From Pseudomonadota bacterium (GTDB lineage Bacteria; SAR324; NAC60-12): DNA of 64,000 nucleotides. The translations under genes were made by a program, and so were the position numbers. The notes under the pieces are model-generated. The model did no database searches and was not told where the DNA came from. It saw only the letters and a list, made by a program, of their open reading frames with translations. The DNA lies in assembly GCA_004213175.1 (NCBI GenBank), contig SHAT01000001.1, positions 1,720 through 65,719 on the forward strand. The letters are read 5' to 3'. Numbering within the stretch: the first letter of the stretch is position 1; each line of letters starts with the position of its first letter. This document shows positions 8,789 to 42,402 of this stretch, piece by piece.

Positions 8789-11700
8789 TCAAAAATTCTG
8801 GAGATATATTTCTCTGATATTTTTAGTAACTTTTTCCAAAGTTTCCTTTAAATCATATACTTCGTAACCATGATGCTTTAAAAGTTTAAGAATCGTTTCA
8901 GTTTTGACCTTTTTAAAATCCAATAAATCTGTTGAATCATCATAGATCAGTCGTAGTGCATTTTCAATCAATCTCAACAGTTTGTAGTTGTATCGTAAAG
9001 TCTGGGCATCTTCTTTGTTAAGTAAATTCAATTCACCAAGTTCCTGCAGTGCATCCAGAGTTTTTGGACGACGTAATTGAGGATAATTACGTCCATACTT
9101 AAGCTGTAATGCCTGTGTAAGATATTCAATATCCAACAAGCCACCCCTGCCTTCTTTGATGTTTTTTCGATTTTCATTTTCGCCTGAGAGTTCCTGTTCT
9201 TTACGTAACCTGAAATAATTAATTTGCGCGTTCATATCTTTCGGCGGAATCCATTCATAAACCGCACTACGTATTCCTTCCTCTACTTCTTTAAACCATT
9301 TTGCCTCACCTCGACCACCAATGACCCTACCCTTGATCAAGGCTTGATGTTCCCATGGTTTTGAGTTCCCGTGATATTTTAAATATACGTCTAAAGGTGT
9401 CACCAACACACCAGCATTTCCAGAAGGACGCAAACGAGCATCAAGTTTATATGCATATCCTGTACGTGTCATTGTAGATAGACATGATATGAGGCGCTGG
9501 ATCAGCTTGATCCAGTATTCCTGAGCTCCGAGAACATCTTCTCCGTCTGTGGATCCATCACCGGAATGTATGAAAATTAAATCCAAGTCCGAAAAATAGG
9601 TCAACTCACTCCCACCCAGTTTCCCCAAACCAATGATCGCAAACTGCCCTAATTCTCCATGTTTATTTTTAACATCCCCGTAACGTTGGTTTAACCATTT
9701 CTCCGATAATTTAAATGCGGCCTGCACAATAACTTCCGCGAGTACAGTAAGTCCATATCTTGTCTTTTCGTAAGAGATGACACCTTCCATTTCAGCACTA
9801 CCCAGCAGAAATGTAATTGTATGTTTGAACTGTCTAAGCTGATCTATTTCATCTTCTTCGTTATTGGCACAGCAAAGCAGTTTTTCTTCTAGTTGTGCAG
9901 ACCAACTTTCCGCTGAAATTTCCAGTGCTGAATTGTCCAGTTGATCCAATAAATCCAAATGATTGAGCAGATAATTCCACAACATTTCGCTAGTCTCAGC
10001 AATACGCATCAAGCGTGATATTGAAGAAGGATGTTTGGACAATATTCGATAATAACCAACTTTATTGTTCACGGATTCAAACAGCAGCTGAAATTTATTT
10101 TTTGTACTCTCAGTCATCAGGGGGGAAAGATATTGCGAGAACATTTCTATAAACTGCTTTTCCTCTAAGGTGAGATTTTTTATCCTTGCGCAGTTAAGGA
10201 TTGCCGCTTCAATTTCCAAGTGTTTACGACTAAACAATCCACTAAATACTGCACGCACACTCCCCATCACATCTTTCAAATCACTCAAAAAATGCTGACG
10301 TGCTTTTTCTACATCAAACTCAAGATAAGCTAAATTTCTTGCAATCTGCTGTTGCTGTTCAATATCTGAAGGTAGTGTGTGTGTTTGTTGTTCCTCACGT
10401 AACTGAAGATGATGTTCTACTCTTCTTAAAAATAAATATGCATCTGACAAAGTATCTGCATCTCTCTTCGGGATCAATTCTACTTTCTGTAATTTTTCCA
10501 AAATATCCAAGGTCCCAGGACATCGCAGCTCAGGGTTTACACCGCCGTATAAAAGTTGAAATGTTTGCACAAAAAACTCAATCTCACGAATCCCTCCAAC
10601 ACCTAATTTTACATTTAAAAAGCTTTCCCTTAAATGTTCCTGTTCAATACGCTTTTTTACTTTTTGCACGTCATGTAGCACTGCTTCATCCAACAAACTT
10701 CGGAAAACAAAAGGTGTTATCATGCTCATAAAATCTATTCCTGACTGAAATGTCCCTGCAACCGGGACTGCTTTTATTAGGGCTTGACGTTCCCATACCT
10801 CACCACTTGCTGAATAATATAATTCCATTTCATCCAATGACTGAACAAGTGGTGCTCGATCTCCTCCAGGTCGCAAACGCATGTCCATACGTGCCAGAAA
10901 TCCATCTTCTGTAACATCAGCCATTACATCAATCAATATTTTTGCGGATTTTATCCTGAGTTTAGAATCTTGCTTTGGATCTCCAGTAAGGGCTTCGTTA
11001 TCATGAATGAAAATTAAATCCACATCAGATGAATAATTTAATTCATTACCACCTAATTTTCCCATTCCTAATATCATAAAAGGAAAAACTTCTAAAGACT
11101 CTGAATCTTGAATTTGTTTTGAATCAACAACAAAAGATCCATTTTCATCAGGATTAATATGGTTTGGTAAAATATTATTTATGCCAAGTTCGTATTTAGT
11201 TATTCTCGAAAGAGCTGCACGTAAAGTGCAAATTGCTATCGAGGAAAGTTCTTCGAGTGTCTCCTTGAAAGTGCAAAGTTCAGCAAGGTCACGCACAGTT
11301 ATGCGCAGATATTCTTGATATTTGTATCGCCGTAAAATATTCTTAAATTCCATCAGGGATAACCCAGGTTTAGCCTCTATCCTTTTCAGGATTTCAGATT
11401 CCATCACTTCCAAACTTTTTTTCTGTAAAAGGAAAGGAGAGTTCAGTAATTTATCTGCAAGGTCCGGATTCCTTTTTAACCGAATTGCCAGAAAATTACT
11501 GCGTCCGAAAATATACAAGAATGCAGTAGTGTTAGGACGGTCCCAACTAAAATAGCTCCCTGAAGCTTTCTGGAATGCTTCCGTAAAATCAAGCAACTGT
11601 TTCAGAGCTGTTTCTGGAGCTCCGCAAGACAGCAGTACAGGTAAAAACTTTGCCAAATGTTCTGGAATACCTTTAACAGCAACTAACTGATCCAGTAAAT

Positions 11701-11818
11701 TTGCCAGACGTTCCTTAGATGCATGGGGGAAAGGAAAAGCAGTGTCACGTAATATTTCCTCCCAGCCTATATTTTTAGGCAAAGGAAATATCTTATTTAT
11801 CCAATCGTTGAGTATCAC
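8789..11818 (-). CDS. glnE: Bifunctional glutamine synthetase adenylyltransferase / adenylyl-removing enzyme
   Basis: 1009 aa with two nucleotidyltransferase motifs: GKLGGNELNYSSDVDLIFI (N-terminal half) and GKLGGSELTYFSDLDLIFI (C-terminal half). Confidence 0.85.
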   Translation of the reverse strand: MILNDWINKIFPLPKNIGWEEILRDTAFPFPHASKERLANLLDQLVAVKGIPEHLAKFLPVLLSCGAPETALKQLLDFTEAFQKASGSYFSWDRPNTTAFLYIFGRSNFLAIRLKRNPDLADKLLNSPFLLQKKSLEVMESEILKRIEAKPGLSLMEFKNILRRYKYQEYLRITVRDLAELCTFKETLEELSSIAICTLRAALSRITKYELGINNILPNHINPDENGSFVVDSKQIQDSESLEVFPFMILGMGKLGGNELNYSSDVDLIFIHDNEALTGDPKQDSKLRIKSAKILIDVMADVTEDGFLARMDMRLRPGGDRAPLVQSLDEMELYYSASGEVWERQALIKAVPVAGTFQSGIDFMSMITPFVFRSLLDEAVLHDVQKVKKRIEQEHLRESFLNVKLGVGGIREIEFFVQTFQLLYGGVNPELRCPGTLDILEKLQKVELIPKRDADTLSDAYLFLRRVEHHLQLREEQQTHTLPSDIEQQQQIARNLAYLEFDVEKARQHFLSDLKDVMGSVRAVFSGLFSRKHLEIEAAILNCARIKNLTLEEKQFIEMFSQYLSPLMTESTKNKFQLLFESVNNKVGYYRILSKHPSSISRLMRIAETSEMLWNYLLNHLDLLDQLDNSALEISAESWSAQLEEKLLCCANNEEDEIDQLRQFKHTITFLLGSAEMEGVISYEKTRYGLTVLAEVIVQAAFKLSEKWLNQRYGDVKNKHGELGQFAIIGLGKLGGSELTYFSDLDLIFIHSGDGSTDGEDVLGAQEYWIKLIQRLISCLSTMTRTGYAYKLDARLRPSGNAGVLVTPLDVYLKYHGNSKPWEHQALIKGRVIGGRGEAKWFKEVEEGIRSAVYEWIPPKDMNAQINYFRLRKEQELSGENENRKNIKEGRGGLLDIEYLTQALQLKYGRNYPQLRRPKTLDALQELGELNLLNKEDAQTLRYNYKLLRLIENALRLIYDDSTDLLDFKKVKTETILKLLKHHGYEVYDLKETLEKVTKNIREIYLQNF

Positions 11819-14024: not shown

Positions 14025-14795
14025 ATGAGCGGCATGACCAGTCTGGTTCAAGCAGCAGGAGTAATTGAACGTAAAATGGAGACTGTTTCAAATAATTTGG
14101 CCAACGTCAACACAGTTGGTTTCAAAGAGGATCAGCCTTCTTTCAGGGAAGTTCTTTCCAATGCGCAACGTGTAGCGCCAGAGTCATTTGAGGAACGTTT
14201 TTTATCACATGAATATCTTGACGACTATGTTGGGATGGACAAATCTGCAGTGGTGGTAGATGAAGTTGGTAAAAATTTTGAACCAGGAAGAATTCGTACT
14301 ACAGGGAACGATCTAGATTTTGCACTGGCTAATGAAGGTTTTTTCACCATTGAAACACCTCAAGGAGAACGATATACTCGCGCTGGCAATTTTCAACTTG
14401 ATGCGTCAGGGCGCATTGTAACGAATGACGGATATCCAGTTCTTGGTACGAACGGTGTTATTACAATCAAAGAAGGTAAAATTCAGGTTAACGAAAGTGG
14501 ACAACTCAGTTTAGACGGAGTTATCGCAGACAACTTCCGCTTGGTACGTTTCCAAAAACAAGACAAATTGCAAAAGCTAGGACAGGGGTTTTTTGCACCA
14601 GTAAACAGCAATGATCTGCCAATTGAATCCGAGGAGATCAGGCTCAAACAGGGCATGCTGGAAGATTCTAATGTAAACAGTATGCTCGAAATGACTCGTA
14701 TGATCACCGCGACACGTGCTTATGAAACAGTTCATAGGGCTCTTACAAGGCTAGATAAATTAGATGAAAAAGCAATTAGTATAGTTCAGACTTAA
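14025..14795 (+). CDS. flgF: Flagellar basal-body rod protein FlgF
   Basis: 256 aa. N-terminal rod motif (LANVNTVGFK) and conserved C-terminal helix. Immediately precedes flgG. Confidence 0.75.
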   Translation: MSGMTSLVQAAGVIERKMETVSNNLANVNTVGFKEDQPSFREVLSNAQRVAPESFEERFLSHEYLDDYVGMDKSAVVVDEVGKNFEPGRIRTTGNDLDFALANEGFFTIETPQGERYTRAGNFQLDASGRIVTNDGYPVLGTNGVITIKEGKIQVNESGQLSLDGVIADNFRLVRFQKQDKLQKLGQGFFAPVNSNDLPIESEEIRLKQGMLEDSNVNSMLEMTRMITATRAYETVHRALTRLDKLDEKAISIVQT

Positions 14796-14848
14796 TTATC
14801 TACAAAATTTTTCGCCAAATAACAATCTGACAAAGGAGTTTACCGCTT

Positions 14849-15637
14849 ATGATGCGTGCACTTTATACAGCTGCTACTGGAATGCAGGCCCAGCAAAGAA
14901 ATATTGATACAACTGCTAACAATTTGGCTAACGTCAATACAACAGGCTTTAAAAAAAGCAAAGTCCAGTTTCAAGATTTACTATATTACAATGAACGCAG
15001 TGCAGGTGTTCCTTCTTCAGTATCCACACAGGTTCCAGTTGGTATTCACGTAGGTCATGGTGTTAAATATGTGAGTATTGATAAGGTACATACTCAAGGT
15101 AACATGGAGAACACCGGAAATGATTTAGATATGAGCATTGATGGAATGGGATTTTTTCAGATACTACAGCCTAATGGAATAATTGCATATTCGAGGGACG
15201 GTCATTTCAACGTTGATGGTATGGGACGACTAGTAACAAATGACGGAATGCTTATGGACCCTGAAATTAACATTCCGGCTGATACCAGAAAAGTACAAAT
15301 TGGTATCGATGGTACAGTTTCCGTTTTTCTAAGAGATGACAACATGCCTGAGGCTTTAGGCAGTATTCAGTTGGCTCGTTTTCAAAATCCTGCGGGACTA
15401 ACACCAATTGGTAAGAACCTTTACCTTTCAACTCCTGCTTCTGGGAACGCTATTGTTGACGCACCGGGTTCAAGTAATATGGGATCTCTCACACAGGGAT
15501 TTTTAGAACGTTCAAATGTTTCTCTGGTGGAAGAAATGGTAAATATGATTACAGCACAGCGTGCATATGAGGTAAATTCAAAAGCTATTCAGTCTTCAGA
15601 TGAAATGCTTCAAAACACCAACAATCTTGTACGTTAA
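14849..15637 (+). CDS. flgG: Flagellar distal rod protein FlgG
   Basis: 262 aa. MMRALYTAATGMQAQQ, NLANVNTTGFK, and C-terminal MITAQRAYE..NSKAIQSSDEML typical of FlgG. Confidence 0.85.
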   Translation: MMRALYTAATGMQAQQRNIDTTANNLANVNTTGFKKSKVQFQDLLYYNERSAGVPSSVSTQVPVGIHVGHGVKYVSIDKVHTQGNMENTGNDLDMSIDGMGFFQILQPNGIIAYSRDGHFNVDGMGRLVTNDGMLMDPEINIPADTRKVQIGIDGTVSVFLRDDNMPEALGSIQLARFQNPAGLTPIGKNLYLSTPASGNAIVDAPGSSNMGSLTQGFLERSNVSLVEEMVNMITAQRAYEVNSKAIQSSDEMLQNTNNLVR

Positions 15638-15744
15638 TTAATTTCGACTTAAATCCATTAGTAGTAATTTTATTTTTATTAAAAAGAAAAAACGGATTCT
15701 AGGGAAACAGTTTAAAAAAACACTACGTATTAAAAATAGAATCA

Positions 15745-16758
15745 GTGGTTAATAAAAAAGATAGAAAGATGAGATATCTCAAGCACAGTTGCAGATTGTT
15801 TGTGCTGTTAATTTTGCTTAGTTCTGGGATAGCTTTTTCTAAAGGAAGCTCTCTTCCTGAGGAAGAACAGATCAAAATTATCCTCCCTCAGTCTTCAGTT
15901 ATTAATAACGATCAATACCTACTGGGAGAAATTTCACAAATTGAAGGGGGAGATGTTGTGCTCCTGGAAAAAGTCAGCCAAATCGTCATTGGTCAATCAC
16001 CTTTACCCGGCCGCAAATTAACTGTTACAAGATCATTAATTCTCTCCCGTTTACGTTCCCAGAAGATTAATACAAAACGCTTTTTATTTCCAGGATCAGA
16101 ATCAAGCAGTATTACTCGTGCAGCACTCAAAATCAAAGGTAAAGATATAGAACAGGTAGTCCTAAAGCACATCAGGGATACTAATAATAACGAGGACTTA
16201 AAACCTCGGATACTTGCTAAAACAAGAGATATTTTCCTTCCCAGAGGGCAGGTAAGTTACGTTATCAATTCTAAAGGCAAATATAAAAAAGAAGGCGGTT
16301 ACCGAAATTATGATGTTGAGTTCAGTATAGATGGTAAAGCAGTCAGGATTGTTACTGTGCGAACATATCTAAAATTGTACAAAGAAGTTTTTGTTGCACG
16401 TGATACTATTAAACGTAATAAAATTATTGAAGAATCGGATTTAATGAAAGTCCGTAAAAATGTAGACCGAATGCCACGAGAATATATAACAGAAAAAGAT
16501 CAACTGGTAGGCAAAATATCTAACCGAACAATAAATCCGAGTGAAACAATCCGCGGTAATACAGTTTCAATTCCACCATTGGTAAAATCCGGTGATCGTT
16601 TGCAGATTGTTTTTGAAACTCCTTTTTTACGTCTTTCAGCTCCAGGAATTTCTATGGCAAAGGGTAGAAAGGGAGAAAGAATCCCCGTGAAAAACATGGA
16701 CAGTAAAATCGTGGTTTTTGCCACTGTAAAAACCAGAAATATTGTTCTGGTAAATTAA
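15745..16758 (+). CDS. flgA: Flagellar basal-body P-ring formation chaperone FlgA
   Basis: 337 aa with signal peptide. C-terminal SAF/FlgA-like region (PLVKSGDRLQIVFE...GERIPVKNMDSKIVV). Position between flgG and flgH. Confidence 0.6.
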   Translation: MVNKKDRKMRYLKHSCRLFVLLILLSSGIAFSKGSSLPEEEQIKIILPQSSVINNDQYLLGEISQIEGGDVVLLEKVSQIVIGQSPLPGRKLTVTRSLILSRLRSQKINTKRFLFPGSESSSITRAALKIKGKDIEQVVLKHIRDTNNNEDLKPRILAKTRDIFLPRGQVSYVINSKGKYKKEGGYRNYDVEFSIDGKAVRIVTVRTYLKLYKEVFVARDTIKRNKIIEESDLMKVRKNVDRMPREYITEKDQLVGKISNRTINPSETIRGNTVSIPPLVKSGDRLQIVFETPFLRLSAPGISMAKGRKGERIPVKNMDSKIVVFATVKTRNIVLVN

Positions 16759-16946
16759 TCATAGAGACTTGCTTTGCTGGAGCATCAGCAAATTATAGAA
16801 AGTGATGATTTTCAGATTAGACTTCTAAAATTAGAAACAAATCTAATTTTAGAATATACTTAATTAAAAGGTTTTTCTTTTATGCTTTTCGAAAATGAGA
16901 AACTTTCTTAATTTCTTAATTATTAATTTTTAAAATTGTTTTAAAA

Positions 16947-17717
16947 GTGTCAGATTTATTCCACTTACATACGCCTCCCTTCAAGTACTTTTTGACTACA
17001 CTATTGTTATTTAGTCTTTCCGGTTGTCTTCCTTCGAGACCTGAACCGCAACCTCCGAATGAACTTGTTGAGGAGAATGCAGTAAAAAAACAAAATGACA
17101 AATTACGACTAACATCAAAAAAAGTCCGCCGCAAAAGAATTTCTTCAAGCAGAAACCTTTATGAGGGCTCACTCTGGCGTTACGAATCGTCTTTTGGGAA
17201 TCTACTCCGTGATCACCGCGCCCGTTTCCGTGGTGACCTGTTGAATATTAACGAAGTAAGTTTGATCGTAAACGCTCCTCCCCCAAAATTACCAACTGAA
17301 GGCCAACCAGCAGGAGGAGCAGCAACAGCAAATGTTGCACTGGAAGCTTTGACCTTAAGAGATGCGATTGAAGAAGAACAAAACGATATTTTACGGAATT
17401 TAGACGGAATTTCTGCTCGCGTAATCCGAGTACTTCCTGATGGAAACATGCTCATCAAAGGACAAAAGATTGACTATAGACAACGTAATCAAGTGAGATA
17501 CATAACCACTGTAACAGGCATTTTACGTCCAGCAGACATAAATGATTCAAACATTGTTTCTGCCAGTAAACTTGCAAATCCTAACGTAAAAATCAAGCGA
17601 CAGCAAAGTGGCAGCCTAGTTCGTGAACGTCTCAAAAAACTAGCCCCACTCCTCGGCAAAGAAAAATCGGGATTGTTAGGTCGTCTTAGTGATTTATCCA
17701 AGGGTGCATCTGAATAA
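16947..17717 (+). CDS. flgH: Flagellar L-ring lipoprotein FlgH
   Basis: 256 aa. Lipobox LFSLSGC and FlgH-like core. GTG start codon. Confidence 0.8.
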   Translation: MSDLFHLHTPPFKYFLTTLLLFSLSGCLPSRPEPQPPNELVEENAVKKQNDKLRLTSKKVRRKRISSSRNLYEGSLWRYESSFGNLLRDHRARFRGDLLNINEVSLIVNAPPPKLPTEGQPAGGAATANVALEALTLRDAIEEEQNDILRNLDGISARVIRVLPDGNMLIKGQKIDYRQRNQVRYITTVTGILRPADINDSNIVSASKLANPNVKIKRQQSGSLVRERLKKLAPLLGKEKSGLLGRLSDLSKGASE

Positions 17718-18060
17718 ACTGCAAATTTTTTTCAGGAATTATGTTTCCATGGGGTGTTTCGTGTGTTTTCAGATAAGAATCATTGGAAGTTCTAACAACC
17801 AATTTGAACAATGTTAGACTCGCCATACCAAAATCCCATTTCAAAATATTGTTTAGAATAGCTCAGCTTTCTTCTGCATTAGATAAAAGAAATCCTTCTA
17901 AGATCTATAGAAAGAGAACTCTTAGCATGTCTGTTTTGTTCATATAAAATATCCTCCTGAAGTAGACCCTTTCAATTAATAATGTATGCCGTTTTACAAG
18001 CAATTTTGTTATACATTGATAATAAAATCTAAATTTTAAAATAGTTATTAAAGCTTCTTC

Positions 18061-21000
18061 ATGACCATAAGTTCCAGCAGATCCGGCCTTTCCCAACTTG
18101 AGAAACAACTGGAGTTACTGACTGCATTTAATCTACAGGTACCTTGTAACCCTCAAGGAGATTTTGCAAAAGCCGGATTTAAAAAATTACTGCAATCCCT
18201 CAAAACAACCAAAATCAGCGATTCCATTCGTGCTTCCTACAACGCAGAACATCTTAAAAAATGGAAAGAGTATGCTCAAAGTGAATTTAATGAAATGGGA
18301 CGAATAAACCGCTTAAGACTAGAAAGTTTGATGCTACTTTCAGATGAAGAAATGATTAAAACCATGTTTGAAGGTCTGCTCATTTTTGATATCAATCCTG
18401 AAGATTCACGGCAGTTGGAAGTACATGAAAAGACAGGTAAGTATAATGATGATGGAAAACCCGTAACACGCAATATCGCATTTGACGTTTTTAAAAAAGA
18501 TGCAATTCACGGAATAGAAGGAATCGAGAGATTCTTACCATCACCTGCAATCAAGGGTGAGGCAGGTATGGATGCTCATCTGGAGCATGAATTTTCTGGC
18601 ACAGACCTCGTCAGTCATTTTAAAAAAGATTCCGCAAAGATGATTAAAGCCCTCACAACCATTGGAAGTCTTGGCGGAATAGGACACAAGCCCGATTCAG
18701 ACATGGATGCGCAGGTAATTATAAATACAAACCCGGAATTTCAATTTAGCTGGAATGATGCGGATTTTCTGGTGGCATTGATTGCAAATGTTTTAGAGTC
18801 TTTTTATGATCAGTACTTTCGCTATTCTCTGACTGCAAAAGAACGTATCGAAATAAATAAAACTGCGATAGCTACTTTAAAAGAAAAATGCAGTGAAGGA
18901 ATCAGCGAAGAAGAATTGCGTGTGATTGACTCTATCTTTGCAAGCAGTTACCGCAGAGAATTGAGAAAATTAATTCAAGCACATGTGCAAAAGCGTCCTG
19001 CAGAAGAGCAAAGAAGATTTTTCCTAAAGGCAGTCATCACGACTTTAAACTCTTTTCCAGATTGTGAGGATTTGCTATCACCGCTTAATAATTTTTTCCC
19101 ATTCATAAAAAACACTGGTGGGGACCTTGAACGAAAAGGTTTCCCCTTTTCGTTCAAGCAATTTAAAAAAGAAAAAGTTCTAAAGTGGTTAATTCAGTAT
19201 TATCGTCATACTTTTCTCGATGATGCAGGTGCCCGTCAAGTTTTATGGCGCTATGCAGTCAGCAACAACATGACACCGGATTCCGTCCCTGAGGAAAAAC
19301 AAAACGCTTGTTTTTTGAACAGTTTGACTAATAACTCTCAGTTATCATTACTGCTGAAGGAGTTTTTTGAGTTCCTATCCAGCAAGGTGGCTTTTTCAAC
19401 ACGTAAAAATGTGGCAGAAGCAATAAAATCATTAAAAGAGCACTTCAGAGCAAACAATTTAGAACTTGATGGAAATCTGGAAGAACATATTTCCTCCATG
19501 TTTGAAATCAATTACAGTTCCAGAATCGTTGAGTTGATTGAAGTTTTTTCTGATGGACAAGCCAAAGACGTTGAAGCTCAAATTGAATATCCTTTACATC
19601 TCAAAATTCAGCAAGCAGAAGCTTATCTTACGAAAAAATATCCATCAACAGAAATACATTTTTTCACCAATATTCTACGAAAACAGCGCAACGGACAGCA
19701 TACCCCATTTTTAGTTTCTCCGGAAGGCAGTATGGCTTATGCACTGATGCTTAACGATTTCCTGCTAAATCCTGCTGCCATGATCTGCGGTATAACACCC
19801 ATGCCTTTTGACCTACCTAAGAATTTTAAGGTTCTTTCTTCAATTGGAGTTTTTCCGGATGAGGAGTGGACACTCAAGCAAAATCTTGATGCAGAATATA
19901 AAGTACCATCAAAAACTGCTAAACCGGAAAACGAAGAAGGACAGACAAAAAAGACGTCAGGAGAAAAGATACCTATTCTTGAAGAAGAAACAGAGTCATT
20001 TGTGCTTGGGAAATTACCGAACTGGGGTGAAATTATTATCCCGCGTGAAATGTTTCTGGGGCATGCACTGCCTATTTTTTTACGTGAAAGTGAGAAAATT
20101 AGTCACCGTAATCTTCCCAAAGCATTATTAAACTGCTGGTGGCTGGAAATGATTGTCTGCATTGACAAGGATGATGATCTACCTACAAGTCTGACACGAC
20201 TCTTATGGAATCCGGAAGGCAGAAAATTTATCAGCGAACAACATAAAGGTTCGTTGATTGACGCAATCATTAAAATGGAGGACGATTATCCTCCACTACC
20301 ACTTGATCCGTGGTGGTTGAAATTTACAGAGATGCTGGTACGTTTCGAAAGCTACGAACAGGATGAAGAGGAAGAACCGGATTATGAACTTACTACTCTT
20401 TCTGAAACTCAAAAGAATATTGTTTTTTGCTTTTCTCAGCACATGCGCATTACTGATATTATTAATTTCGGAGATGAAGGAAAAGCATTCTGGCAGGGTG
20501 AAGATGCAAACTGGCGCAGCAGAGCCTTAGTTGATTTTTACAATATTTTCTTTTCTGTTCCTGAGGACCGTCGTGAACTGATTCGCTTTGCTGAGGGACG
20601 TGACGATGCAGGAAACAAAGTGGAAAAAATGCTCAAGAAACTTTTTCTTGAATCGATGACACGAGTAGAGAAGAAACTCTGCAAAATAGGACACACACGT
20701 GCACTGCAACAAATAAGCAACCAACTGGCACGATTGTGCGAGAAAGGTTTTGAAAAAGAAAAAACAGCAAAATTCCTCAGCCCTTTGCTAGACCTTGTTA
20801 ATCAACGTGTTTCCATAGAAGACAGAAAAGTACTGATAAAACTTAAAAAGAAAATCCCGCTCAACAAAATTGAACAAATGCAGGCTAAGATTGTTTATGA
20901 AGAATTACAAAAACTAAAAAGCGTGCAGGGCAACATTGTTGATTATTTTGCTCAGTTTAGGTTAAAAATGGAAGAAAGTTGGGTCCGTAAAACAATCACA

Positions 21001-21924
21001 AACGCCAAAGTGAAAATAGCCGGAAATTCATTGGAAAATGTTATTTTTAAATTTCATTTTGAGCGTAATTTTGAAAGAAAACCTTTTCAGGTTCCTTTGC
21101 CGATTTCAAAGAGTCTGAGTATCCCTCGTTCCAAAATAAAAGTAGAATTTATCCGTAAAACAGCAAAATGGAAATTCAGTTCTGTTCTCAGCCACAGAGA
21201 AGCCGGAAGAGAAAAGAATGCAGAAAATGTGATGCCGATGTTTGAGTCAAATCTGGTAGAAGGTGTTGCGCGCTGCACTTTTAGCGGATATGTAGGTTTT
21301 GGTGGAAAGCATCTTTCAACCTTTGAAAAACCTGCATCACAAGTTCATAGTGACATTGCAATGAACGCCGTTTCAGGTGGTGCACTAGTTATAATAGCAA
21401 AAGAAATAATAAAATTTTTCAAGCCGTTCACAGTTTCATCTCGAGAGTTAATGTCAGACATACATTACGTACGTGACATTCTAATGATCTGTAATGTCAA
21501 TAAGAATGATACTCTTTCGCTAATTGTGCGAGATAATCTGGGTGAGCAATTTGTGATCAACTTTGATATTCAAAAAATTGACGTAAAGAAAGTTCCTCCA
21601 AAATTAAGAATAGGCGGCGACTCTGTCGTTGCAGAATTCTTTATGAGACTCAACAGCCAGCAGTGCCGACTTTTATTCATGAAAAATTTGTCAGCCTTAA
21701 AAATTCCTCTACGTACTTCATTTCAACCTCGTCTGCATATTTGGGTCAATGGAGCAAATTACAACCTACCAGTAACACCAAAATTTCAGCAGAATTACCT
21801 TAACGGAATTGCAAATACTCTCTGGCCTCATAACTCGATTGGAACACGTGAGCATTTAAAACCTGTTAATTTAAGCAGGACATTTGATGAAATTGGCAAA
21901 GAATCTATGCACGGGACTGAATAA
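18061..21924 (+). CDS. Class I (CyaA-type) adenylate cyclase homologue with large N- and C-terminal extensions
   Basis: 1287 aa. Around residue 205 there is a Pol-beta-type NTase motif, TTIGSLGGIGHKPDSDMDAQVII (E. coli CyaA has GSTSSVGQSCSSDLDIWV). Also VLESFYDQYFRYSLTAK (E. coli LLDEFYRTAVRLAGK), FFLKAVITTLNSFP, and VFCFSQHMR (E. coli VFCYSQHLR). The E. coli strings are recalled from memory, not retrieved. Confidence 0.6.
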   Translation: MTISSSRSGLSQLEKQLELLTAFNLQVPCNPQGDFAKAGFKKLLQSLKTTKISDSIRASYNAEHLKKWKEYAQSEFNEMGRINRLRLESLMLLSDEEMIKTMFEGLLIFDINPEDSRQLEVHEKTGKYNDDGKPVTRNIAFDVFKKDAIHGIEGIERFLPSPAIKGEAGMDAHLEHEFSGTDLVSHFKKDSAKMIKALTTIGSLGGIGHKPDSDMDAQVIINTNPEFQFSWNDADFLVALIANVLESFYDQYFRYSLTAKERIEINKTAIATLKEKCSEGISEEELRVIDSIFASSYRRELRKLIQAHVQKRPAEEQRRFFLKAVITTLNSFPDCEDLLSPLNNFFPFIKNTGGDLERKGFPFSFKQFKKEKVLKWLIQYYRHTFLDDAGARQVLWRYAVSNNMTPDSVPEEKQNACFLNSLTNNSQLSLLLKEFFEFLSSKVAFSTRKNVAEAIKSLKEHFRANNLELDGNLEEHISSMFEINYSSRIVELIEVFSDGQAKDVEAQIEYPLHLKIQQAEAYLTKKYPSTEIHFFTNILRKQRNGQHTPFLVSPEGSMAYALMLNDFLLNPAAMICGITPMPFDLPKNFKVLSSIGVFPDEEWTLKQNLDAEYKVPSKTAKPENEEGQTKKTSGEKIPILEEETESFVLGKLPNWGEIIIPREMFLGHALPIFLRESEKISHRNLPKALLNCWWLEMIVCIDKDDDLPTSLTRLLWNPEGRKFISEQHKGSLIDAIIKMEDDYPPLPLDPWWLKFTEMLVRFESYEQDEEEEPDYELTTLSETQKNIVFCFSQHMRITDIINFGDEGKAFWQGEDANWRSRALVDFYNIFFSVPEDRRELIRFAEGRDDAGNKVEKMLKKLFLESMTRVEKKLCKIGHTRALQQISNQLARLCEKGFEKEKTAKFLSPLLDLVNQRVSIEDRKVLIKLKKKIPLNKIEQMQAKIVYEELQKLKSVQGNIVDYFAQFRLKMEESWVRKTITNAKVKIAGNSLENVIFKFHFERNFERKPFQVPLPISKSLSIPRSKIKVEFIRKTAKWKFSSVLSHREAGREKNAENVMPMFESNLVEGVARCTFSGYVGFGGKHLSTFEKPASQVHSDIAMNAVSGGALVIIAKEIIKFFKPFTVSSRELMSDIHYVRDILMICNVNKNDTLSLIVRDNLGEQFVINFDIQKIDVKKVPPKLRIGGDSVVAEFFMRLNSQQCRLLFMKNLSALKIPLRTSFQPRLHIWVNGANYNLPVTPKFQQNYLNGIANTLWPHNSIGTREHLKPVNLSRTFDEIGKESMHGTE

Positions 21925-22052
21925 CAGATTTAAAATAGGAAATTTTATATGTTTATAAAAAACATTTCCTATTTATCTACCTTGTCCGTATAATAAATCT
22001 GACAGCAGCACTGGTCAGCACTTTATTTATGAACAAGCTACTGAGCTAGAAA

Positions 22053-23303
22053 ATGGCAGACAAAGAACCAAAAGAAAATCAAAAAACTCCGAATGTTAAT
22101 TTCATCAGTTTTCAAAAGCAGCTGCGTGGAATAGTTAAAGACGTTAAAGAGCATAATAAAAAAACAGGGCTAAAAAAAATTTTTGGTAGCAAAACTGAAA
22201 ATTTGCATGTCAACGGAAGTATTTTGCAAAAAGATATTCCAGACAATAAAGAAATTTCAAAGTATGTTAAACAGTTAGATAAAGAACCAAACAATGTCGA
22301 ATCACGTTTAATGTTGGTAAATACCGTATTGAATGCCAGAAAAGATCATTCATTGAGTACCCATCTGAACTTGATGCTGCAAGCTGCATTACCAGTTTAT
22401 CTAGGTGACATCACCCCAACAATTATACAGATTGTTGTGCATACCTACCGTTCTTATTTAGAATGCCTCGGCAATATTCACAAACAAAACATGATGGCCA
22501 TTAAATCAACTGCTCTGAAAAATGTGAATATGAAGGGGATTGATGTCAATGATGAAAAGACTGAAGATACCCATGTGAAAGACTCAGAGTCGATAAAAAC
22601 TGAAATTAAAATTGCAGAATCACTGATTGAAAATTGTGATTCTGTGATTCAAAGTGTAAAAACAAAAATGACTGCCACCCTTTCACATGAAGAAATTGAA
22701 GAGCTTACCGCTGAAGGTAAAGCATCCAGTTCTATGTTTGGCGGCAGCGAAGAAAAAGTGAATCCGAACAAACAAAATCTGATTATTGGTAAAGCCGTAC
22801 AGGCAATTGAAATATTGAAACAAATCCCATTGCTACAGGGTGCAGGGCTAGATCTGGCAAAACAACTAGGTCGCATTGACTCAAAGCTAACTTATCCACT
22901 AGTGATGGAGGGGCGTATTCAAATGCAGGCATTAAAATATCAATTGCTGAGGATAGAAAGTGGTGATCGTATTGCACGGGATAACATGGCTCCTGTATAC
23001 AATCTTGCATTAGTGGCTTACCGAAAAGCTTTGAAACTTACTTCAAAATCTACTCCTAAAAAAGCAGACCTACCAGTATTGACAGAGTTCGGAAATATGA
23101 CTCATTATGGTTATATACACCGTGATCTAATGCGCTTTACCGAAGAAGGTGTAAAAACTTTGGTCAAGCTAGGGAAAGATTCTGTTGATGCAGCAGTAAC
23201 CGTAGATGAAAGTTTTGTCCCACTACAAAAACGTCTAGAGAGTTCAATGACTCAGCTCTTCCAAAATGAGACACAAGCAAATAGTAAAGTCAGATTCAAC
23301 TGA
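22053..23303 (+). CDS. Hypothetical protein, 416 aa, predicted mostly helical, no recognisable motif
   Basis: Long ORF in clean coding context 128 bp downstream of the cyclase-like gene, same strand. Lys/Glu-rich. Confidence 0.5.
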   Translation: MADKEPKENQKTPNVNFISFQKQLRGIVKDVKEHNKKTGLKKIFGSKTENLHVNGSILQKDIPDNKEISKYVKQLDKEPNNVESRLMLVNTVLNARKDHSLSTHLNLMLQAALPVYLGDITPTIIQIVVHTYRSYLECLGNIHKQNMMAIKSTALKNVNMKGIDVNDEKTEDTHVKDSESIKTEIKIAESLIENCDSVIQSVKTKMTATLSHEEIEELTAEGKASSSMFGGSEEKVNPNKQNLIIGKAVQAIEILKQIPLLQGAGLDLAKQLGRIDSKLTYPLVMEGRIQMQALKYQLLRIESGDRIARDNMAPVYNLALVAYRKALKLTSKSTPKKADLPVLTEFGNMTHYGYIHRDLMRFTEEGVKTLVKLGKDSVDAAVTVDESFVPLQKRLESSMTQLFQNETQANSKVRFN

Positions 23304-23321: not shown

Positions 23322-24338
23322 GTGGAAAATCTTCTGCAAAAACTCCATAAAAATTGGGAACATATTCAACTGGCTGCCGCAATAGAAAAGAAAAATAACA
23401 TAAAAAAACAAAAAAAACCTCTTACCGTATTGGTCAGCGTAAGTGGTGGCTGTGACTCGGTTGCTCTCCTCCATTTGCTCCAGCGTCAAAGAAATCTTTT
23501 TGATCTGGAACCGCATATTTTACATTTCAATCATCAATTGCGACCAGAATCAGCCCAAGAGCAAGATTTTGTAAAATCAATTGCCGAACATTATGAAATC
23601 CCTTTTCATCATAAAACAGCAAAACACCTTAAATCAGGACAATCCGCCCTACAGGAATCAGCCCGTGAATGGCGGATTGAAGAGTCCCGTAATCTACTAA
23701 ATTTTCTCGGAGGTGGGTTTATTGCTACAGGACATCAGGCTGATGACCAGATAGAAACCTTATTACTTAAATGGCTACGTGGAACGCATATTTCAAATAT
23801 GCAGGGCATGCAATGGACAAACGAAGATTTCATCCGTCCTCTGCTCAACTTTAAGAAGAGCGAGTTGAAAGAATATTTAAAAACTAATAAGTTGACATGG
23901 ATGGAAGATACTTCAAACCAAAGCTCAGCATACTTACGTAATCGTGTACGCATTGAACTGATACCACTTTTGGAAGAATTAACCCGACATGGTCTGCATT
24001 CACGGATTAATGATTTAAGTGAACAAAGCAAAATTCTACGCAAATTTTTGGACTCAAATTATGATACTTGGGAAAAAAGCCATAAAAAGCAAGCTAGTAA
24101 CACTCAGGATGTTCTCCACATAAAAGTGTTAGAGCAGGCTGACGATTTGATTGTACATGAAATTTTACATAATTTCATTACAGCACATACTGGGCTAGTA
24201 TTGAGTTTTCGAAAACTCCAAAACATTTTTGACCAATTAAGGAAAGACAGCAATCTATGGGAAATGAATCTTTCTCAGGAATGGATAATCAAGAAGTCCG
24301 GGAAAAAACTTTGCTTGCAACAAAATAAAGAAAAGTAA
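23322..24338 (+). CDS. tilS: tRNA(Ile)-lysidine synthetase
   Basis: 338 aa with PP-loop (VLVSVSGGCDSVALL), N-type ATP pyrophosphatase family. Confidence 0.8.
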   Translation: MENLLQKLHKNWEHIQLAAAIEKKNNIKKQKKPLTVLVSVSGGCDSVALLHLLQRQRNLFDLEPHILHFNHQLRPESAQEQDFVKSIAEHYEIPFHHKTAKHLKSGQSALQESAREWRIEESRNLLNFLGGGFIATGHQADDQIETLLLKWLRGTHISNMQGMQWTNEDFIRPLLNFKKSELKEYLKTNKLTWMEDTSNQSSAYLRNRVRIELIPLLEELTRHGLHSRINDLSEQSKILRKFLDSNYDTWEKSHKKQASNTQDVLHIKVLEQADDLIVHEILHNFITAHTGLVLSFRKLQNIFDQLRKDSNLWEMNLSQEWIIKKSGKKLCLQQNKEK

Positions 24339-39417: not shown

Positions 39418-42402
39418 TTGAACCATGAAACTGGTCTTGTCTATATGAGGTTACTATGGAATTTCTTTGTTCTGTTAACCTTCAGCATCTTGACTGCTGT
39501 CAGCGCACTCGCGCAAAAGACAGATGCCTACAATAATCCTATCTTAATTAATAATATCGAGTTGCTGCGCCGTGGCAAGCAAATCAGTGTACGTCTTCTC
39601 ACAAACAAAGCCCCAGATTACGAAATAACTGAAAATCTTGCAGCCCGAACGTTGGTGTTAAAGATCAAAAACGCAAGTGCTGTTTTTAAAGACGGACGTC
39701 TTGAACGTCTATTTAATGATTCTCAATTGGCAGGAATCCGTTTTTTAGCAATTGACGGTGACAGTTGGGCACAATTTAAATTGTTGCAAAAAGATTTAAG
39801 TTATTCCGTCAGTTCTCTCGAAAAGAACAATGGAGTTCAAATTGATTTCCGCCCCACATTCCAAGTTCAACCCTTGCCCGATCCCCTCGAAGACTCTGTG
39901 TATGAGCTTTCTGATATTGATTTTGACACCAGCAAAGGAAATTTTACACGTATAACTTTCAGTTTTAACAAACTGTCAAAGATCTCAGCAGATGGTTCTG
40001 TTCCCGAAGACAAGCATCCACCACGAATTTTTTTACTGGAAGACAGCCAACAAACTTTGCTGACAATCCGAATGCCCAATACTTTAGCTAAAAAAAATCT
40101 GGGTGGAAAAAAATATAAAGGATCACGTTTAGAACTGGCATCACTCAAATCAAATGTAAACCAAACCTTTGTTGAATTAAAACTCAAAGCAAGAGCGGTT
40201 AGTGTGGAACGACATTTTGTGTCTAGTCCGCTTAAATGGATGCTCGACATTCATGGGACACCATACAAGAAAAAAACTACCACTTTAGCAATGGAAGGGA
40301 AAAAACTGAGTCAGAAAGAATTGGCTCTGCTTGAATCTAAGGAAAACGCACGCCGTATTAGAAATTCTAAAATCAATCCCATAATTCAACTTGGTGAAAC
40401 CGCTTTTCGTACGAGAATGTATGATGAAGCTGTAAAACATTTCAGGGAAGCTTATGCTCTCGGAAAATCTCACACTCAAGAAGAGTTTGGTGATCCTCTC
40501 CATCCATTAGCAGCAAGAGCACTTTTCCGGATCGGAGACACGATATACACGATGCTTGAGCGTCGCATAGGCAATAACTATCACCAAGCAATTGAAGCAT
40601 ACAAAACAGCAATCCGTATCACACAGGATGCAGAAAAATTTGCTCAGGAAAATGGTGAAACGTTTGTCACGACGTCTCTTTTACCTCACGCAATTTTGCG
40701 GATCGGTCGTGCGTATCAAAAAATGAATTTCCAACATGAGGCTGATGTTTACTTTAAAATATTGCGGGATCGTTTCTCAAATTCAATTCAAGCCAATGAG
40801 GCAAATTTTTGGCAGGGTATGAGTGGTATAGAGCAAAGACAATGGGAAAACAGTATCACAAATTTTAAAGAATATTTGCGTTCTACCCCACAACCAAAAT
40901 ATTTTGCTGTTACACATTACAAAATGGCACAGGCTTATTATCAACTTGAACGATACATCACCGCACGCGAATTTTTTGACATAGCGCGTAATGTTGACAA
41001 GGAATACGTCAAAGATGACCCAACATTATTATTCCACATGGGGGAGACTTATTATGAAAATGCAGATTATGTAACGGCACGTGAAATTTTCCGGCTCCTC
41101 CTGCAAAAATATCCAAAAGCTGATTTTTCAAAATTAGTCGCACTTCGTCTAGGTGATTTTCTGCGAGACGAAGGTAAAGAAGACGAAGCTATTCAAGCCT
41201 ACAAAAAAGCAATCAGCAGTTACAAAAGAGAAATTGCTCTACTTGGAAAATTGCGAATTGCGAACATTCAGGCAAAACGCCCATATACAGAGGAACACCT
41301 TGAGGCAATCAAGGTATATGATGAAATAGCCAGACTATATCCAGAAACTCCTCAGGCAGAAGAAGCAATGCTCCGAAAAGGATTGACGCTTACACTTTAT
41401 GGTTCTTATGAAGATGCTATAAAATCTCTGGAACTTTTCATGGAGAAATATCCTCAAAATGTATACGTGCTAAAAAATGTAATTCAGGAGAACATTGATG
41501 AAAATCTGAAAGGGCTTATAGATAGTTATTTTCGCCAGAACGACACGCTTGCCCTGGTAAGTGCATATAGTGATTATAAAGCAAAATATCTTTTCGATTT
41601 CCGTTTTAATACTACTCTTTTTCAAACTGCGGTAGCTCACCGCAAACTACAATTTTTTGATGAAGCACTAGATATTTTACGCTTTCTCGAAACACGTTCC
41701 GGAGGAACAATCAGCGAATTGGTTCAGCTTGAAAAAGCTCGCACGCAGTTAGAAAAAGAAGATCTGACAGAAGCCCGAAATACTATTGCTAGATTTCTAA
41801 AACATTCCCCTGAAAGTCCTTACGACTCTGAAACTAGGCAACTGTTGGCACGTATTTACAGAAAACAGAAATCATACCCCAAAGCATTACTTGTTTACAA
41901 ACAAACTATTCAAAAATACAATCAAAACAAGAAACCGTTGTTAGCCGAAATAGTTCCCGAGCTCTATTATGATTTAGGCGAATTACATGAGGAAACAGGG
42001 AATTTTGTAGAAGCAGGGAAAGCTTTTCAGGGAGCGATTTCAAGCTATAAACACCCGCTTGATCATAAGGACACTCCAGAGTATATTATCAAAAGCCATT
42101 TCCTGTCAGCAGATATGCACAAGAAAGCACATAATTATGAGACTGCGCTGAAGACCTATCAGAATGCAATTTCTCTTTATGGAGACAAGAAGAGCAAGGA
42201 AATAATTGAACTTGTTTTTTGGGCAACCTATCATATAGGAACTATTTATTCACGACAAGATAAAGATCAGAAGGCATTAACAATATTCAAAAAACTGATG
42301 ATTGAAAAAACAGGTGAAGGTCACCTTTGGAAAAAACTTGCGAAAGAAAATCACCATAGGATTTCTAGAAAATTAGCGTATGATAATTATCTTAAAGAGT
42401 GA
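39418..42402 (+). CDS. Large secreted TPR-repeat protein
   Basis: 994 aa. Probable signal peptide from the internal Met (MRLLWNFFVLLTFSILTAVSALA). Numerous TPR-like A/Y/F-spaced helices in the C-terminal two thirds. Confidence 0.7.
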   Translation: MNHETGLVYMRLLWNFFVLLTFSILTAVSALAQKTDAYNNPILINNIELLRRGKQISVRLLTNKAPDYEITENLAARTLVLKIKNASAVFKDGRLERLFNDSQLAGIRFLAIDGDSWAQFKLLQKDLSYSVSSLEKNNGVQIDFRPTFQVQPLPDPLEDSVYELSDIDFDTSKGNFTRITFSFNKLSKISADGSVPEDKHPPRIFLLEDSQQTLLTIRMPNTLAKKNLGGKKYKGSRLELASLKSNVNQTFVELKLKARAVSVERHFVSSPLKWMLDIHGTPYKKKTTTLAMEGKKLSQKELALLESKENARRIRNSKINPIIQLGETAFRTRMYDEAVKHFREAYALGKSHTQEEFGDPLHPLAARALFRIGDTIYTMLERRIGNNYHQAIEAYKTAIRITQDAEKFAQENGETFVTTSLLPHAILRIGRAYQKMNFQHEADVYFKILRDRFSNSIQANEANFWQGMSGIEQRQWENSITNFKEYLRSTPQPKYFAVTHYKMAQAYYQLERYITAREFFDIARNVDKEYVKDDPTLLFHMGETYYENADYVTAREIFRLLLQKYPKADFSKLVALRLGDFLRDEGKEDEAIQAYKKAISSYKREIALLGKLRIANIQAKRPYTEEHLEAIKVYDEIARLYPETPQAEEAMLRKGLTLTLYGSYEDAIKSLELFMEKYPQNVYVLKNVIQENIDENLKGLIDSYFRQNDTLALVSAYSDYKAKYLFDFRFNTTLFQTAVAHRKLQFFDEALDILRFLETRSGGTISELVQLEKARTQLEKEDLTEARNTIARFLKHSPESPYDSETRQLLARIYRKQKSYPKALLVYKQTIQKYNQNKKPLLAEIVPELYYDLGELHEETGNFVEAGKAFQGAISSYKHPLDHKDTPEYIIKSHFLSADMHKKAHNYETALKTYQNAISLYGDKKSKEIIELVFWATYHIGTIYSRQDKDQKALTIFKKLMIEKTGEGHLWKKLAKENHHRISRKLAYDNYLKE

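Follow-up and report, generated by a model that had tools for sequence, protein, structure and literature searches.

A SAR324 family of large nucleotidyltransferases whose catalytic domain appears remotely related to that of class I adenylate cyclases

The textbook source of cAMP in E. coli is its class I adenylate cyclase, CyaA, whose residues S103, S113, D114, D116 and W118 are reportedly essential. Cyclases of this class are described as narrowly distributed, and gammaproteobacteria typically carry one copy (PMC1183210). The 64,000-nucleotide stretch of SAR324 DNA analysed here (the window) encodes a 1,287-aa protein with a CyaA-like active-site motif, followed by a gene for a 416-aa protein, referred to as its partner (Table 1). 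A sequence-only reading of the locus described the large gene as a class I-type cyclase homologue inserted after the flagellar genes flgF, flgG, flgA and flgH, and proposed that it forms with its partner a cyclic-nucleotide module possibly coupled to motility. Both open reading frames are real, and the four flagellar genes do lie directly upstream on the same strand, but insertion finds no backing: the G+C content of the large gene equals that of the whole window (0.383), and the same order of genes recurs throughout the lineage.

Table 1. Coordinates of the features discussed, as positions in the window.
Feature	Position	Strand	Remarks
flgF, flgG, flgA, flgH (rod proteins, P-ring chaperone, L-ring)	14025..17717	+	Pfam/NCBIfam
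Promoter-like block upstream of large gene, …CCGTTTT-N9-TTTTGTTATACA	17986..18015	+	conserved across nine orthologues
Large gene, 1,287-aa cyclase-like nucleotidyltransferase	18061..21924	+	ORF with ATG start
First half of catalytic domain, residues ~70-235	18268..18765	+	homologous to class I cyclase N-terminal domain (Adenyl_cycl_N)
Nucleotidyltransferase active-site motif, G202-S203-x9-S213-D214-x-D216-x-Q218	18664..18714	+	residue-for-residue alignment with CyaA
All-helical insert splitting catalytic domain, residues ~240-505	18778..19575	+	poorly conserved
Second half of catalytic core, residues ~505-700	19573..20160	+	EAYLTKKYP-STEIHFF…SPEGSMAY…ESEK-SHRNLPKALLNCWWLEM
C-terminal region, residues ~700-1287	20161..21921	+	helical and alpha/beta, family-specific, ~590 residues
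AT-rich imperfect palindrome/hairpin after stop codon	21926..21978	+	present in window, not conserved
Promoter-like block upstream of partner, AAAACAgTTCC…-N17-…CGTATAAT	21957..21994	+	conserved in orthologous spacers
416-aa all-helical protein (partner)	22053..23303	+	restricted to marine SAR324 clade
tilS (tRNA-Ile lysidine synthetase)	23322..24338	+	TIGR02432 E=8.5e-53, PF01171

The 1,287-aa protein represents the window-type, flagellar-linked paralogue in a family restricted to SAR324, and this family, of which literature searches found no description, is previously undescribed within a known enzyme superfamily. All 52 genomic loci found belong to the SAR324 lineage, often with two or three paralogues per genome, in agreement with the earlier view that the host is not a gammaproteobacterium. 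The 59 full-length homologues are all annotated as hypothetical; no source treats them as a common cyaA locus. The polymerase-beta-like nucleotidyltransferase superfamily is recognised by G-[SG]-x9-13-[DE]-x-[DE] on a strand-helix-strand core, and the large protein carries this motif as G202-S203-x10-D214-x-D216, near-invariant in 65 sequences and assigned by an AF2 model (residues 88-1287, pLDDT 83.8, pTM 0.80) to strands spanning model residues 108-113 and 128-134, together with the nucleotidyltransferase fold and helical companion domain of the superfamily. No signal peptide was found, and no transmembrane segment is inferred because the one borderline hydrophobic stretch (residues 1099-1117, KD19 1.65) sits inside a confidently modelled alpha/beta domain; the protein would thus be a cytoplasmic polymerase-beta-type nucleotidyltransferase. 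PDB sequence searches with the single sequence and with the family profile gave no significant match, and Foldseek against the PDB returned only insignificant helical-repeat matches (E 0.05 or worse). The best structural neighbours are transferases (ANT) and not cyclases, in a database where no class I cyclase structure was found for comparison; the kanamycin nucleotidyltransferase motif matches the active-site motif weakly.

The relation to class I cyclases is remote and is seen most clearly through intermediates. In Pfam and NCBIfam the sole matches of the large protein are to class I cyclase models, so that the sequence family recognisably closest to its active site is the N-terminal catalytic domain of these cyclases, in line with this part of the sequence-only reading, and GlnE/GlnD, CD-NTase/SMODS and other nucleotidyltransferase profiles gave no match at E up to 0.01, while the GlnE of the window (8789-11818, minus strand) was recovered by its own profile at 9.5e-104. 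These matches are faint: Adenyl_cycl_N (PF12633) covers residues 179-223 only (E=3.9e-4, 20.9 bits, threshold 27), and the NCBIfam class I cyclase model gives 18.4 bits (0-20 bits for other SAR324 family members) against curated cutoffs of 802 or more. PF01295, the class I core of about 600 residues (CyaA 228-825), has no match in the large protein, whereas the E. coli CyaA control scores 858.7 bits. Given the absence of this core and a score of 18 bits against cutoffs of 802 or more, the large protein is not a member of class I. Neither BLASTP nor hhalign aligned E. coli CyaA significantly with the large protein or the family profile, a deep homologue search did not retrieve canonical class I cyclases, and CyaA residues 201-848 scored no better than shuffled sequence against three family profiles. 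Four short blocks had been singled out as characteristic of CyaA, and of these only the nucleotidyltransferase motif holds up. ESFYDQYF and KAVITTLNSFP fall in poorly conserved columns (mean identity 0.32 and 0.42) and no method aligned them to CyaA; VFCFSQHMR agrees with CyaA VFCYSQHLR at 7/9 positions, yet it lies in the part of CyaA that scores like shuffled sequence. After the shuffle control and the conservation profile, the FCFSQH/FCYSQH and KAV… blocks were rejected as a sign of colinearity along the full length.

A bridging family of rare, 860-1,060-aa Adenyl_cycl_N proteins from metagenomes (P0197, P0199, P0201-P0213, P0215, P0218, P0219, P0228, P0237 and P0290) secures, at the level of sequence profiles, the catalytic domain of the large protein as a remote homologue of the class I (CyaA-type) catalytic domain. 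It aligns with the SAR324 family at E=2.9e-63 over 809 columns (hhalign; residues 70-1197). Its matches to class I cyclase models reach E=3e-15 and span model positions of about 19-296, and it aligns with CyaA residues 11-134 at E=1.6e-5. The bridging proteins P0199, P0197 and P0207 match NF006981 positions 150-296 (E=2.9e-15, 1.3e-9 and 1.9e-9) with the part equivalent to the second catalytic half of the large protein. Since the matches to class I models are confined to positions ~19-296, the homology is limited to the catalytic domain; PF01295 was absent from 21/21 bridging proteins, even at E up to 10. Across both families 64 positions are at least 93% identical, all catalytic candidates included. 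The earlier description as a class I-type cyclase homologue is therefore correct for the catalytic domain, as remote homology, and does not extend to class I membership; the genes of the SAR324 family should not be called cyaA.

The polymerase-beta motif noted earlier, GSLGGIGHKPDSDMDAQ, spans residues 202-218, and no other block of the family is as strongly conserved. Its counterpart in CyaA is G102-S103…S113-D114-L-D116-I-W118, so that the conserved S203, S213, D214 and D216 align exactly with S103, S113, D114 and D116; across the SAR324 and bridging families G202, S203, S213 and D216 never vary, and D214 occurs in 62/65 sequences. The position of W118 is taken by Q218 (Q in 42/44 family sequences, Q or E in the bridging family). 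The second catalytic half, interrupted by a variable acidic linker (residues ~605-645), follows the motif in degree of conservation, with E531, E555, E676, K679, K687 and E696 near-invariant in the 65 sequences; E531, on the strand after the insert (E in 60/65, D in one more), is a candidate third catalytic carboxylate. The insert itself is the least conserved part of the protein, is modelled as helices (model residues 146-439, AF2) and is missing from the bridging family in the hhalign alignment. To judge from this pattern of conservation, the large protein is probably an active nucleotide-using enzyme.

The best explanation as a whole, to which a probability of roughly 0.45 is assigned, is that these proteins are a SAR324 family of paralogous nucleotidyltransferases with a remote CyaA-type catalytic domain, plausibly cyclising, and separate from a unit formed by the partner and tilS. 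The homology, the fold class and the strict conservation of the G-S…S-D-x-D motif with further charged residues are established; the identity and architecture of the large protein can be stated with considerable confidence, while cyclase activity is plausible by analogy and the chemistry itself is advanced only tentatively. The catalytic domain would be split into halves (residues ~70-235 and ~505-700) parted by the ~260-aa helical insert and followed by ~590 family-specific residues. NTP-Mg2+ would be bound at G202/S203/D214/D216, and the nucleotide would most likely be cyclised, as by the only characterised relative, through attack of the 3'-OH on the alpha-phosphate to give cAMP or another cNMP and pyrophosphate. 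A regulatory role is proposed for the C-terminal region, and this and the helical insert may be regulatory or sensor modules, comparable with the C-terminal domain of CyaA. A conserved sigma-70-like promoter of its own seems to drive the large gene; the location of this gene after flgFGAH would reflect inherited gene order and not operon membership, with the partner forming a separate unit, with its own promoter, coupled to tilS.

The genomic neighbourhoods allow other readings. Genes of the family are repeatedly embedded between efp and epmA; this association is the older one, and that with flagellar genes is a derived one. Conserved neighbours such as efp/epmA and tilS are suggestive of a function connected with translation, which counts against the cyclase reading, as do the undetected PF01295 core, scores far under the curated class I cutoffs, the Q in place of W118 and the ANT enzymes as best structural neighbours; nor was a CRP-type or cNMP-binding gene found within the window. 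The family might comprise non-cyclising nucleotidyltransferases that load AMP or some other NMP onto an acceptor, either a macromolecule or a small molecule; a link with translation is possible, through EF-P/EpmA in the case of the older paralogues and through tRNA/TilS in that of the window copy. This reading seems less likely: the linkage is missing from the bridging family outside SAR324 and from nine family loci, the only sequence relative with a characterised function is a cyclase, and no acceptor-binding domain was recognised. Housekeeping gene order, moreover, is often conserved without a common function. A broader conjecture, and a decidedly speculative one, is that the family is a translation-tied, class-I-cyclase-like nucleotidyltransferase, acting either through a second messenger that reports EF-P or translation status or by nucleotidylating EF-P, EpmA or tRNA-related targets. 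In marine SAR324 a gene duplication would have been followed by recruitment of one copy to a site next to the tilS unit and the flagellar rod/ring genes.

It is improbable that the large and 416-aa proteins work together as a signalling module of two genes, based on a cyclic nucleotide and tied to flagellar motility. The order flgFGAH-gene-partner does recur in most window-type loci, with flgFGAH directly upstream in 17/20 informative loci and the partner adjoining downstream in 18/20; the deposited locus tags H8E38_04035 and H8E38_04040 (large gene and partner) are adjacent, and fliG lies near one bridging-family locus. Three window-type loci, however, have no flagellar genes within 7 kb, and the older linkage, as noted, is to efp/epmA. 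In four 'ancestral-type' loci flgFGAH is upstream with a 571-aa gene in between; a relationship of this gene to the partner was rejected (hhalign probability 0.1%). The only block conserved among nine orthologues in the 343-bp spacer between flgH and the large gene has a -10-like TATACA (18010-18015) preceded by TG; it resembles a sigma-70 promoter of the extended -10 type, with no likeness to sigma-28 or sigma-54 promoters, which argues against a specific coupling to motility.

The partner appears to go with tilS and not with the large gene. It has no Pfam or NCBIfam match, in keeping with the earlier remark that it lacks a recognisable domain, and its predicted fold is uninformative. A carboxyltransferase gene takes its place at two orthologous loci (L017 and L020), and it is absent beside all other paralogues of the large gene, while tilS lies closely downstream of it in 17/17 checkable loci, 18 bp away in the window. 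Partner-TilS fusions at L013, L024 and L026 were rejected because a stop codon is present. The spacer between large gene and partner is 128 bp long and contains an AT-rich hairpin, as had been observed, with a predicted MFE of -27.8 kcal/mol (z=-3.9). No intrinsic terminator was called there, and the ten orthologous spacers gave 0 consensus pairs, so a conserved hairpin or attenuator is rejected. What is conserved is a second promoter-like block, with TATAAT at 21989-21994: CGTATAAT is invariant or nearly so in 10/10 orthologous spacers, and conservation also extends to the GTTCC block upstream of it. Both promoter assignments are ones that we infer from conservation; a simple promoter/terminator scan gave counts not above shuffles, and the search of the spacers for known RNA elements returned only a chance-level L20-leader match inside an ORF (E=0.31). 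Separate promoter-like blocks, an unconserved hairpin, exchange or loss of the partner and the constant presence of tilS together speak against the two-gene module that had been proposed.

In many bacteria flgI follows flgH, and FlgI is periplasmic. A scan of the window ORFs of at least 120 aa and of the near neighbours turned up no flgI. The large gene occupies the usual spot of flgI and most of its product is helical, so a protein devoid of catalysis, serving as a scaffold or structural element such as a flagellar part in place of FlgI, might be envisaged; this is very improbable, as the catalytic residues are almost invariant across the family and strictly conserved in every paralogue group, neither a FlgI profile match (Pfam, NCBIfam) nor an export signal was found, and the majority of paralogues lie away from flagellar genes. 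An ordinary, merely elongated class I cyclase (a cyaA orthologue), to which the weak model matches and colinear short matches to CyaA might point, is refuted at the level of sequence membership by the missing PF01295, the subthreshold scores, the shuffle-like CyaA 201-848 and the failure to retrieve canonical class I cyclases, as well as by the two or three paralogues per genome.

SAR324 is a globally abundant, uncultivated lineage of the ocean. The catalytic domain of the class I cyclases has remote, much larger relatives in this group, plus a rare bridging family; a wider superfamily is thereby defined, and the 64 positions common to both families could direct mutational and structural studies of CyaA. 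Production of a cyclic nucleotide by the SAR324 enzymes would give an ecologically important group an additional signalling system; if they have another activity, the repeated embedding between efp and epmA would point to an unknown step connected with EF-P. Were the translation-tied reading true, it would give an Adenyl_cycl_N-type domain its first non-cAMP function, or take class-I-like cyclase systems beyond gammaproteobacteria for the first time, in a host among the most abundant bacterial lineages of the deep ocean.

Among known systems, the large protein has its closest described counterparts in the class I cyclases (E. coli CyaA; PF12633 plus PF01295; PRK09450 models), with which it has in common an N-terminal helical segment, the nucleotidyltransferase motif with identical spacing (G-S-x9-S-D-x-D) and, as seen via the bridging family, ~150 further residues after the motif that match the CyaA catalytic domain. 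The layout is also common to both: each protein is cytoplasmic and has its catalytic part at the N-terminal end, with a long non-catalytic portion behind it. The large protein differs in length (1,287 aa versus 848 aa), in its ~70-aa N-terminal extension and in the helical insert within the catalytic domain, in the replacement of W118 by Q and in the undetectable PF01295 core. Host, copy number and genomic context differ as well: class I cyclases are gammaproteobacterial and typically single, and E. coli cyaA lies between hemC and cyaY. The bridging family matches the SAR324 architecture over a span that begins with the N-terminal domain and ends close to the C-terminus. It lacks the insert and stands nearer to the class I cyclases, with PF12633 scores of up to 51 bits; it is likewise uncharacterised, occurs in rare lineages of 35-62% G+C, and its loci show no efp/epmA or flgFGAH linkage, with a leucine-rich-repeat gene downstream at two of them. 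The ANT(3'')(9)/AAD(9) and ANT(4') enzymes, also of the polymerase-beta nucleotidyltransferase superfamily, are 9-13% identical to the large protein with E-values that are not significant; they are two-domain proteins of ~250 aa that transfer AMP to antibiotics, and leave the other ~1,000 residues of the large protein unmatched.

Compared directly with the class I adenylate cyclases, the 1,287-aa window protein has PF12633 (Adenyl_cycl_N) as its sole Pfam match (E=3.9e-4, residues 179-223), at 20.9 bits where the gathering score is 27; the Pfam search gave no match to the class I core domain PF01295, and the NCBIfam class I model scores 18.4 bits, its cutoff being 802. BLASTP with E. coli CyaA yields short patches only, and the family profile gives no significant hhalign alignment to CyaA. 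The sequence-only reading had recognised four CyaA blocks, two of which (ESFYDQYF and KAVITTLNSFP) sit in the family's least conserved part; a third, FCFSQH/FCYSQH, with seven of nine residues matching, is not claimable as homology because CyaA residues 201-848, run against three profiles with filters off, score no better than shuffled sequence. The gene is unlikely to be a canonical cyaA.

In a deep profile search covering 1.84 billion representative proteins there were just 120 matches, comprising the window family, fragments and a second, bridging family of 860-1,060-aa proteins found at E=1e-54 to 1e-22. The two families align by hhalign over 809 columns and window residues 70-1197 (probability 100%, E=2.9e-63), the bridging family lacking just one ~260-aa helical stretch. 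All 21 bridging members match PF12633 (best 8.7e-14, up to 51 bits) and none of the 21 matches PF01295; their matches to NCBI full-length class I models jointly span model positions ~19-296, with P0199, P0197 and P0207 matching positions 150-296 at E=2.9e-15, 1.3e-9 and 1.9e-9, and the bridging profile aligns with CyaA residues 11-134 (E=1.6e-5). The bridging family connects the window family to the class I cyclases and, because its matches are confined in this way, the homology is real but limited to the catalytic domain. The proposed class I cyclase homologue survives for that domain and falls for class I membership, PF01295 being absent. At two bridging-family loci (L061 and L062) a leucine-rich-repeat protein, 45% identical between them, is encoded directly downstream of the cyclase-like gene and may be a partner of this family.

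The catalytic domain comprises residues ~70-235 and ~505-700 of the window protein, split by a helical insert, and the C-terminal ~590 residues lie beyond it. CyaA S103, S113, D114 and D116 align exactly with window S203, S213, D214 and D216, and Q218 stands at the position of CyaA W118. Across 65 sequences (44 family, 21 bridging), identity is 93% or more at 64 positions, which reach into the C-terminal region: G202, S203, K210, S213, D216 and E696 are invariant (65/65), D214, E676 and K679 deviate in at most three, and H209, E531, E555 and K687 are likewise highly conserved. This has the appearance of an active enzyme, and a dead scaffold is unlikely. No signal peptide and no convincing membrane segment is present in the window protein or its 416-aa partner, and the PDB holds no class I cyclase structure. 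The window protein is a large cytoplasmic multi-domain protein, and its nucleotidyltransferase active site, of class-I-cyclase ancestry, is strictly selected.

Both reading frames had been placed exactly by the sequence-only reading. The large gene is preceded, on the same strand, by flgF, flgG, flgA and flgH (Pfam/NCBIfam); a scan of the window ORFs of 120 aa or more and of the near neighbours found no flgI, and an L-ring protein normally requires a P-ring. Downstream of the partner, tilS starts after 18 bp, and a ROK-family fructokinase gene also lies on that side. The gene had been described as inserted; its G+C equals that of the window (0.383), so there is no sign of recent insertion. A non-gammaproteobacterial source had been correctly deduced, since every homologue comes from the SAR324 lineage, under labels including 'SAR324 cluster bacterium', 'Deltaproteobacteria bacterium' and 'Candidatus Lambdaproteobacteria'. 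The FtsZ homologue ends with its FtsZ_C domain and is indeed tail-less, without C-terminal linker or tail peptide. Of two very large TPR-repeat proteins, the 893-aa one is encoded by a gene that closely follows, in the same orientation, a MotA/ExbB-family gene and a 174-aa ORF with no domain match. An Rfam deltaproteobacterial L20 leader hit inside the large ORF (22.7 bits vs 42.8, E=0.31) is almost certainly chance.

Coordinates of features in the window and at related loci
Feature	Position	Strand	Size
FtsZ homologue	622-1602	-	326 aa
flgF-G-A-H cluster, no flgI after flgH	14025-17717	+	
Promoter-like block, large gene	17986-18015		
Large ORF	18061-21924	+	1,287 aa
L20 leader hit (rejected)	19123-19177	+	
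Promoter-like block, partner	21957-21994		
Partner ORF	22053-23303	+	416 aa
TPR-repeat protein	39418-42402	+	994 aa
TPR-repeat protein	54269-56950	-	893 aa
MotA/ExbB-family gene	57483-58709		
Metallo-beta-lactamase-fold gene	L005:11825-12616	-	
Domain-less protein after flgH	L006:5972-7687; L031, L052, L053		501-571 aa
Group B loci (second paralogue of the large protein)	L007:7414-13006; L032-L036, L038, L041, L043, L046, L050, L051, L057-L060		
Leucine-rich-repeat protein	L061:8737-9714		
Leucine-rich-repeat protein	L062:8733-9683		
fliG	L064:3621-4637	-	

Within the 128-bp gene-partner spacer is an AT-rich hairpin whose folding is better than that of shuffled sequence (z = -3.9), and an alignment of ten orthologous spacers has no conserved structure; in these ten an invariant CGTATAAT box lies ~58 nt upstream of the partner start codon, with a conserved GTTCC block ahead of it. 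The single conserved block of the 343-bp flgH-gene spacer resembles an extended -10 promoter, ~46 nt before the start codon of the large gene. Since each spacer has its own promoter-like block, we infer that the large gene is transcribed on its own and the partner together with tilS, as two separate units. In both blocks a TTCC-containing element precedes a TATA(C/A)(A/T) box by ~17 nt, a layout that may be a lineage-typical SAR324 promoter form.

Scanning one genome per species gave 52 loci, which all belong to the SAR324 lineage and commonly number two or three per genome; together with loci gathered separately they make 54 distinct loci, of four context types. Group A (22 loci, identity to the window protein at least 51%) has the window order flgFGAH, gene, partner, tilS, with flgH directly upstream in 17 and the partner downstream in 18 of 20 informative loci, and tilS after the partner in 17/17; two window-type loci carry a carboxyltransferase gene in the partner's place. 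Group B (17 loci, 35-43%) reads efp, gene, epmA, with spacings down to 27 bp and an overlap of 4 bp (both in L007) and a genuine epmA, whose TIGR00462 score exceeds its cutoff; Group C (6 loci, 40-43%, all from non-marine MAGs) reads gene, efp, epmA; and Group D (9 loci, 34-43%) is unlinked. In four of the six Group C loci flgFGAH and a 571-aa gene come first; that gene was considered as a relative of the partner and is unrelated to it, and in non-marine SAR324 such conserved, domain-less proteins separate flgH from the large gene. A rough neighbour-joining tree that takes the bridging family as its root puts the efp/epmA-linked copies at the base and Group A in a derived monophyletic clade, so the efp/epmA linkage is older and the window arrangement a later state. 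EpmA is the EF-P beta-lysine ligase, and survival of the linkage despite rearrangement suggests a functional tie to EF-P. Bridging-family loci outside SAR324 have neither efp/epmA nor flagellar linkage, the sole flagellar association seen there being a divergent fliG 1.4 kb from P0237 on a 62% G+C contig (L064); at locus L003, ~7 kb downstream, there is a fliG on the opposite strand. That the window protein is a flagellar structural component is unlikely.

At the G-S/D-x-D site NTP-Mg2+ would be bound, and the protein would carry out nucleotidyl transfer. Cyclic-nucleotide synthesis, regulated by the helical insert and C-terminal region, is tentatively favoured (probability roughly 0.35-0.4), because the only characterised relative of the family cyclises ATP and the multiple paralogues fit signalling enzymes, of which they are typical. 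Transfer to another acceptor is the main rival and somewhat less probable; it draws on transferase-like structural neighbours, on glutamine in place of CyaA W118, and on the persistent translation-related neighbours efp/epmA and tilS. Beside an unlinked paralogue, P0026 (L005), a convergent, adjoining metallo-beta-lactamase-fold gene has the Pfam Anti-Pycsar_Apyc1 signature of a cyclic-nucleotide phosphodiesterase family; this bears on the proposed cyclic-nucleotide synthesis, although a single locus may be due to chance.

Class 1 cyclases have a relatively narrow phylogenetic distribution, and gammaproteobacteria typically have a single copy (Galperin 2005 census, PMC1183210). The present proteins are named 'hypothetical' in all sources, and literature searches returned no description of the window family. 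On present evidence it is not a categorically new system; it stands outside class I and forms a new family, of new architecture, within a known superfamily.
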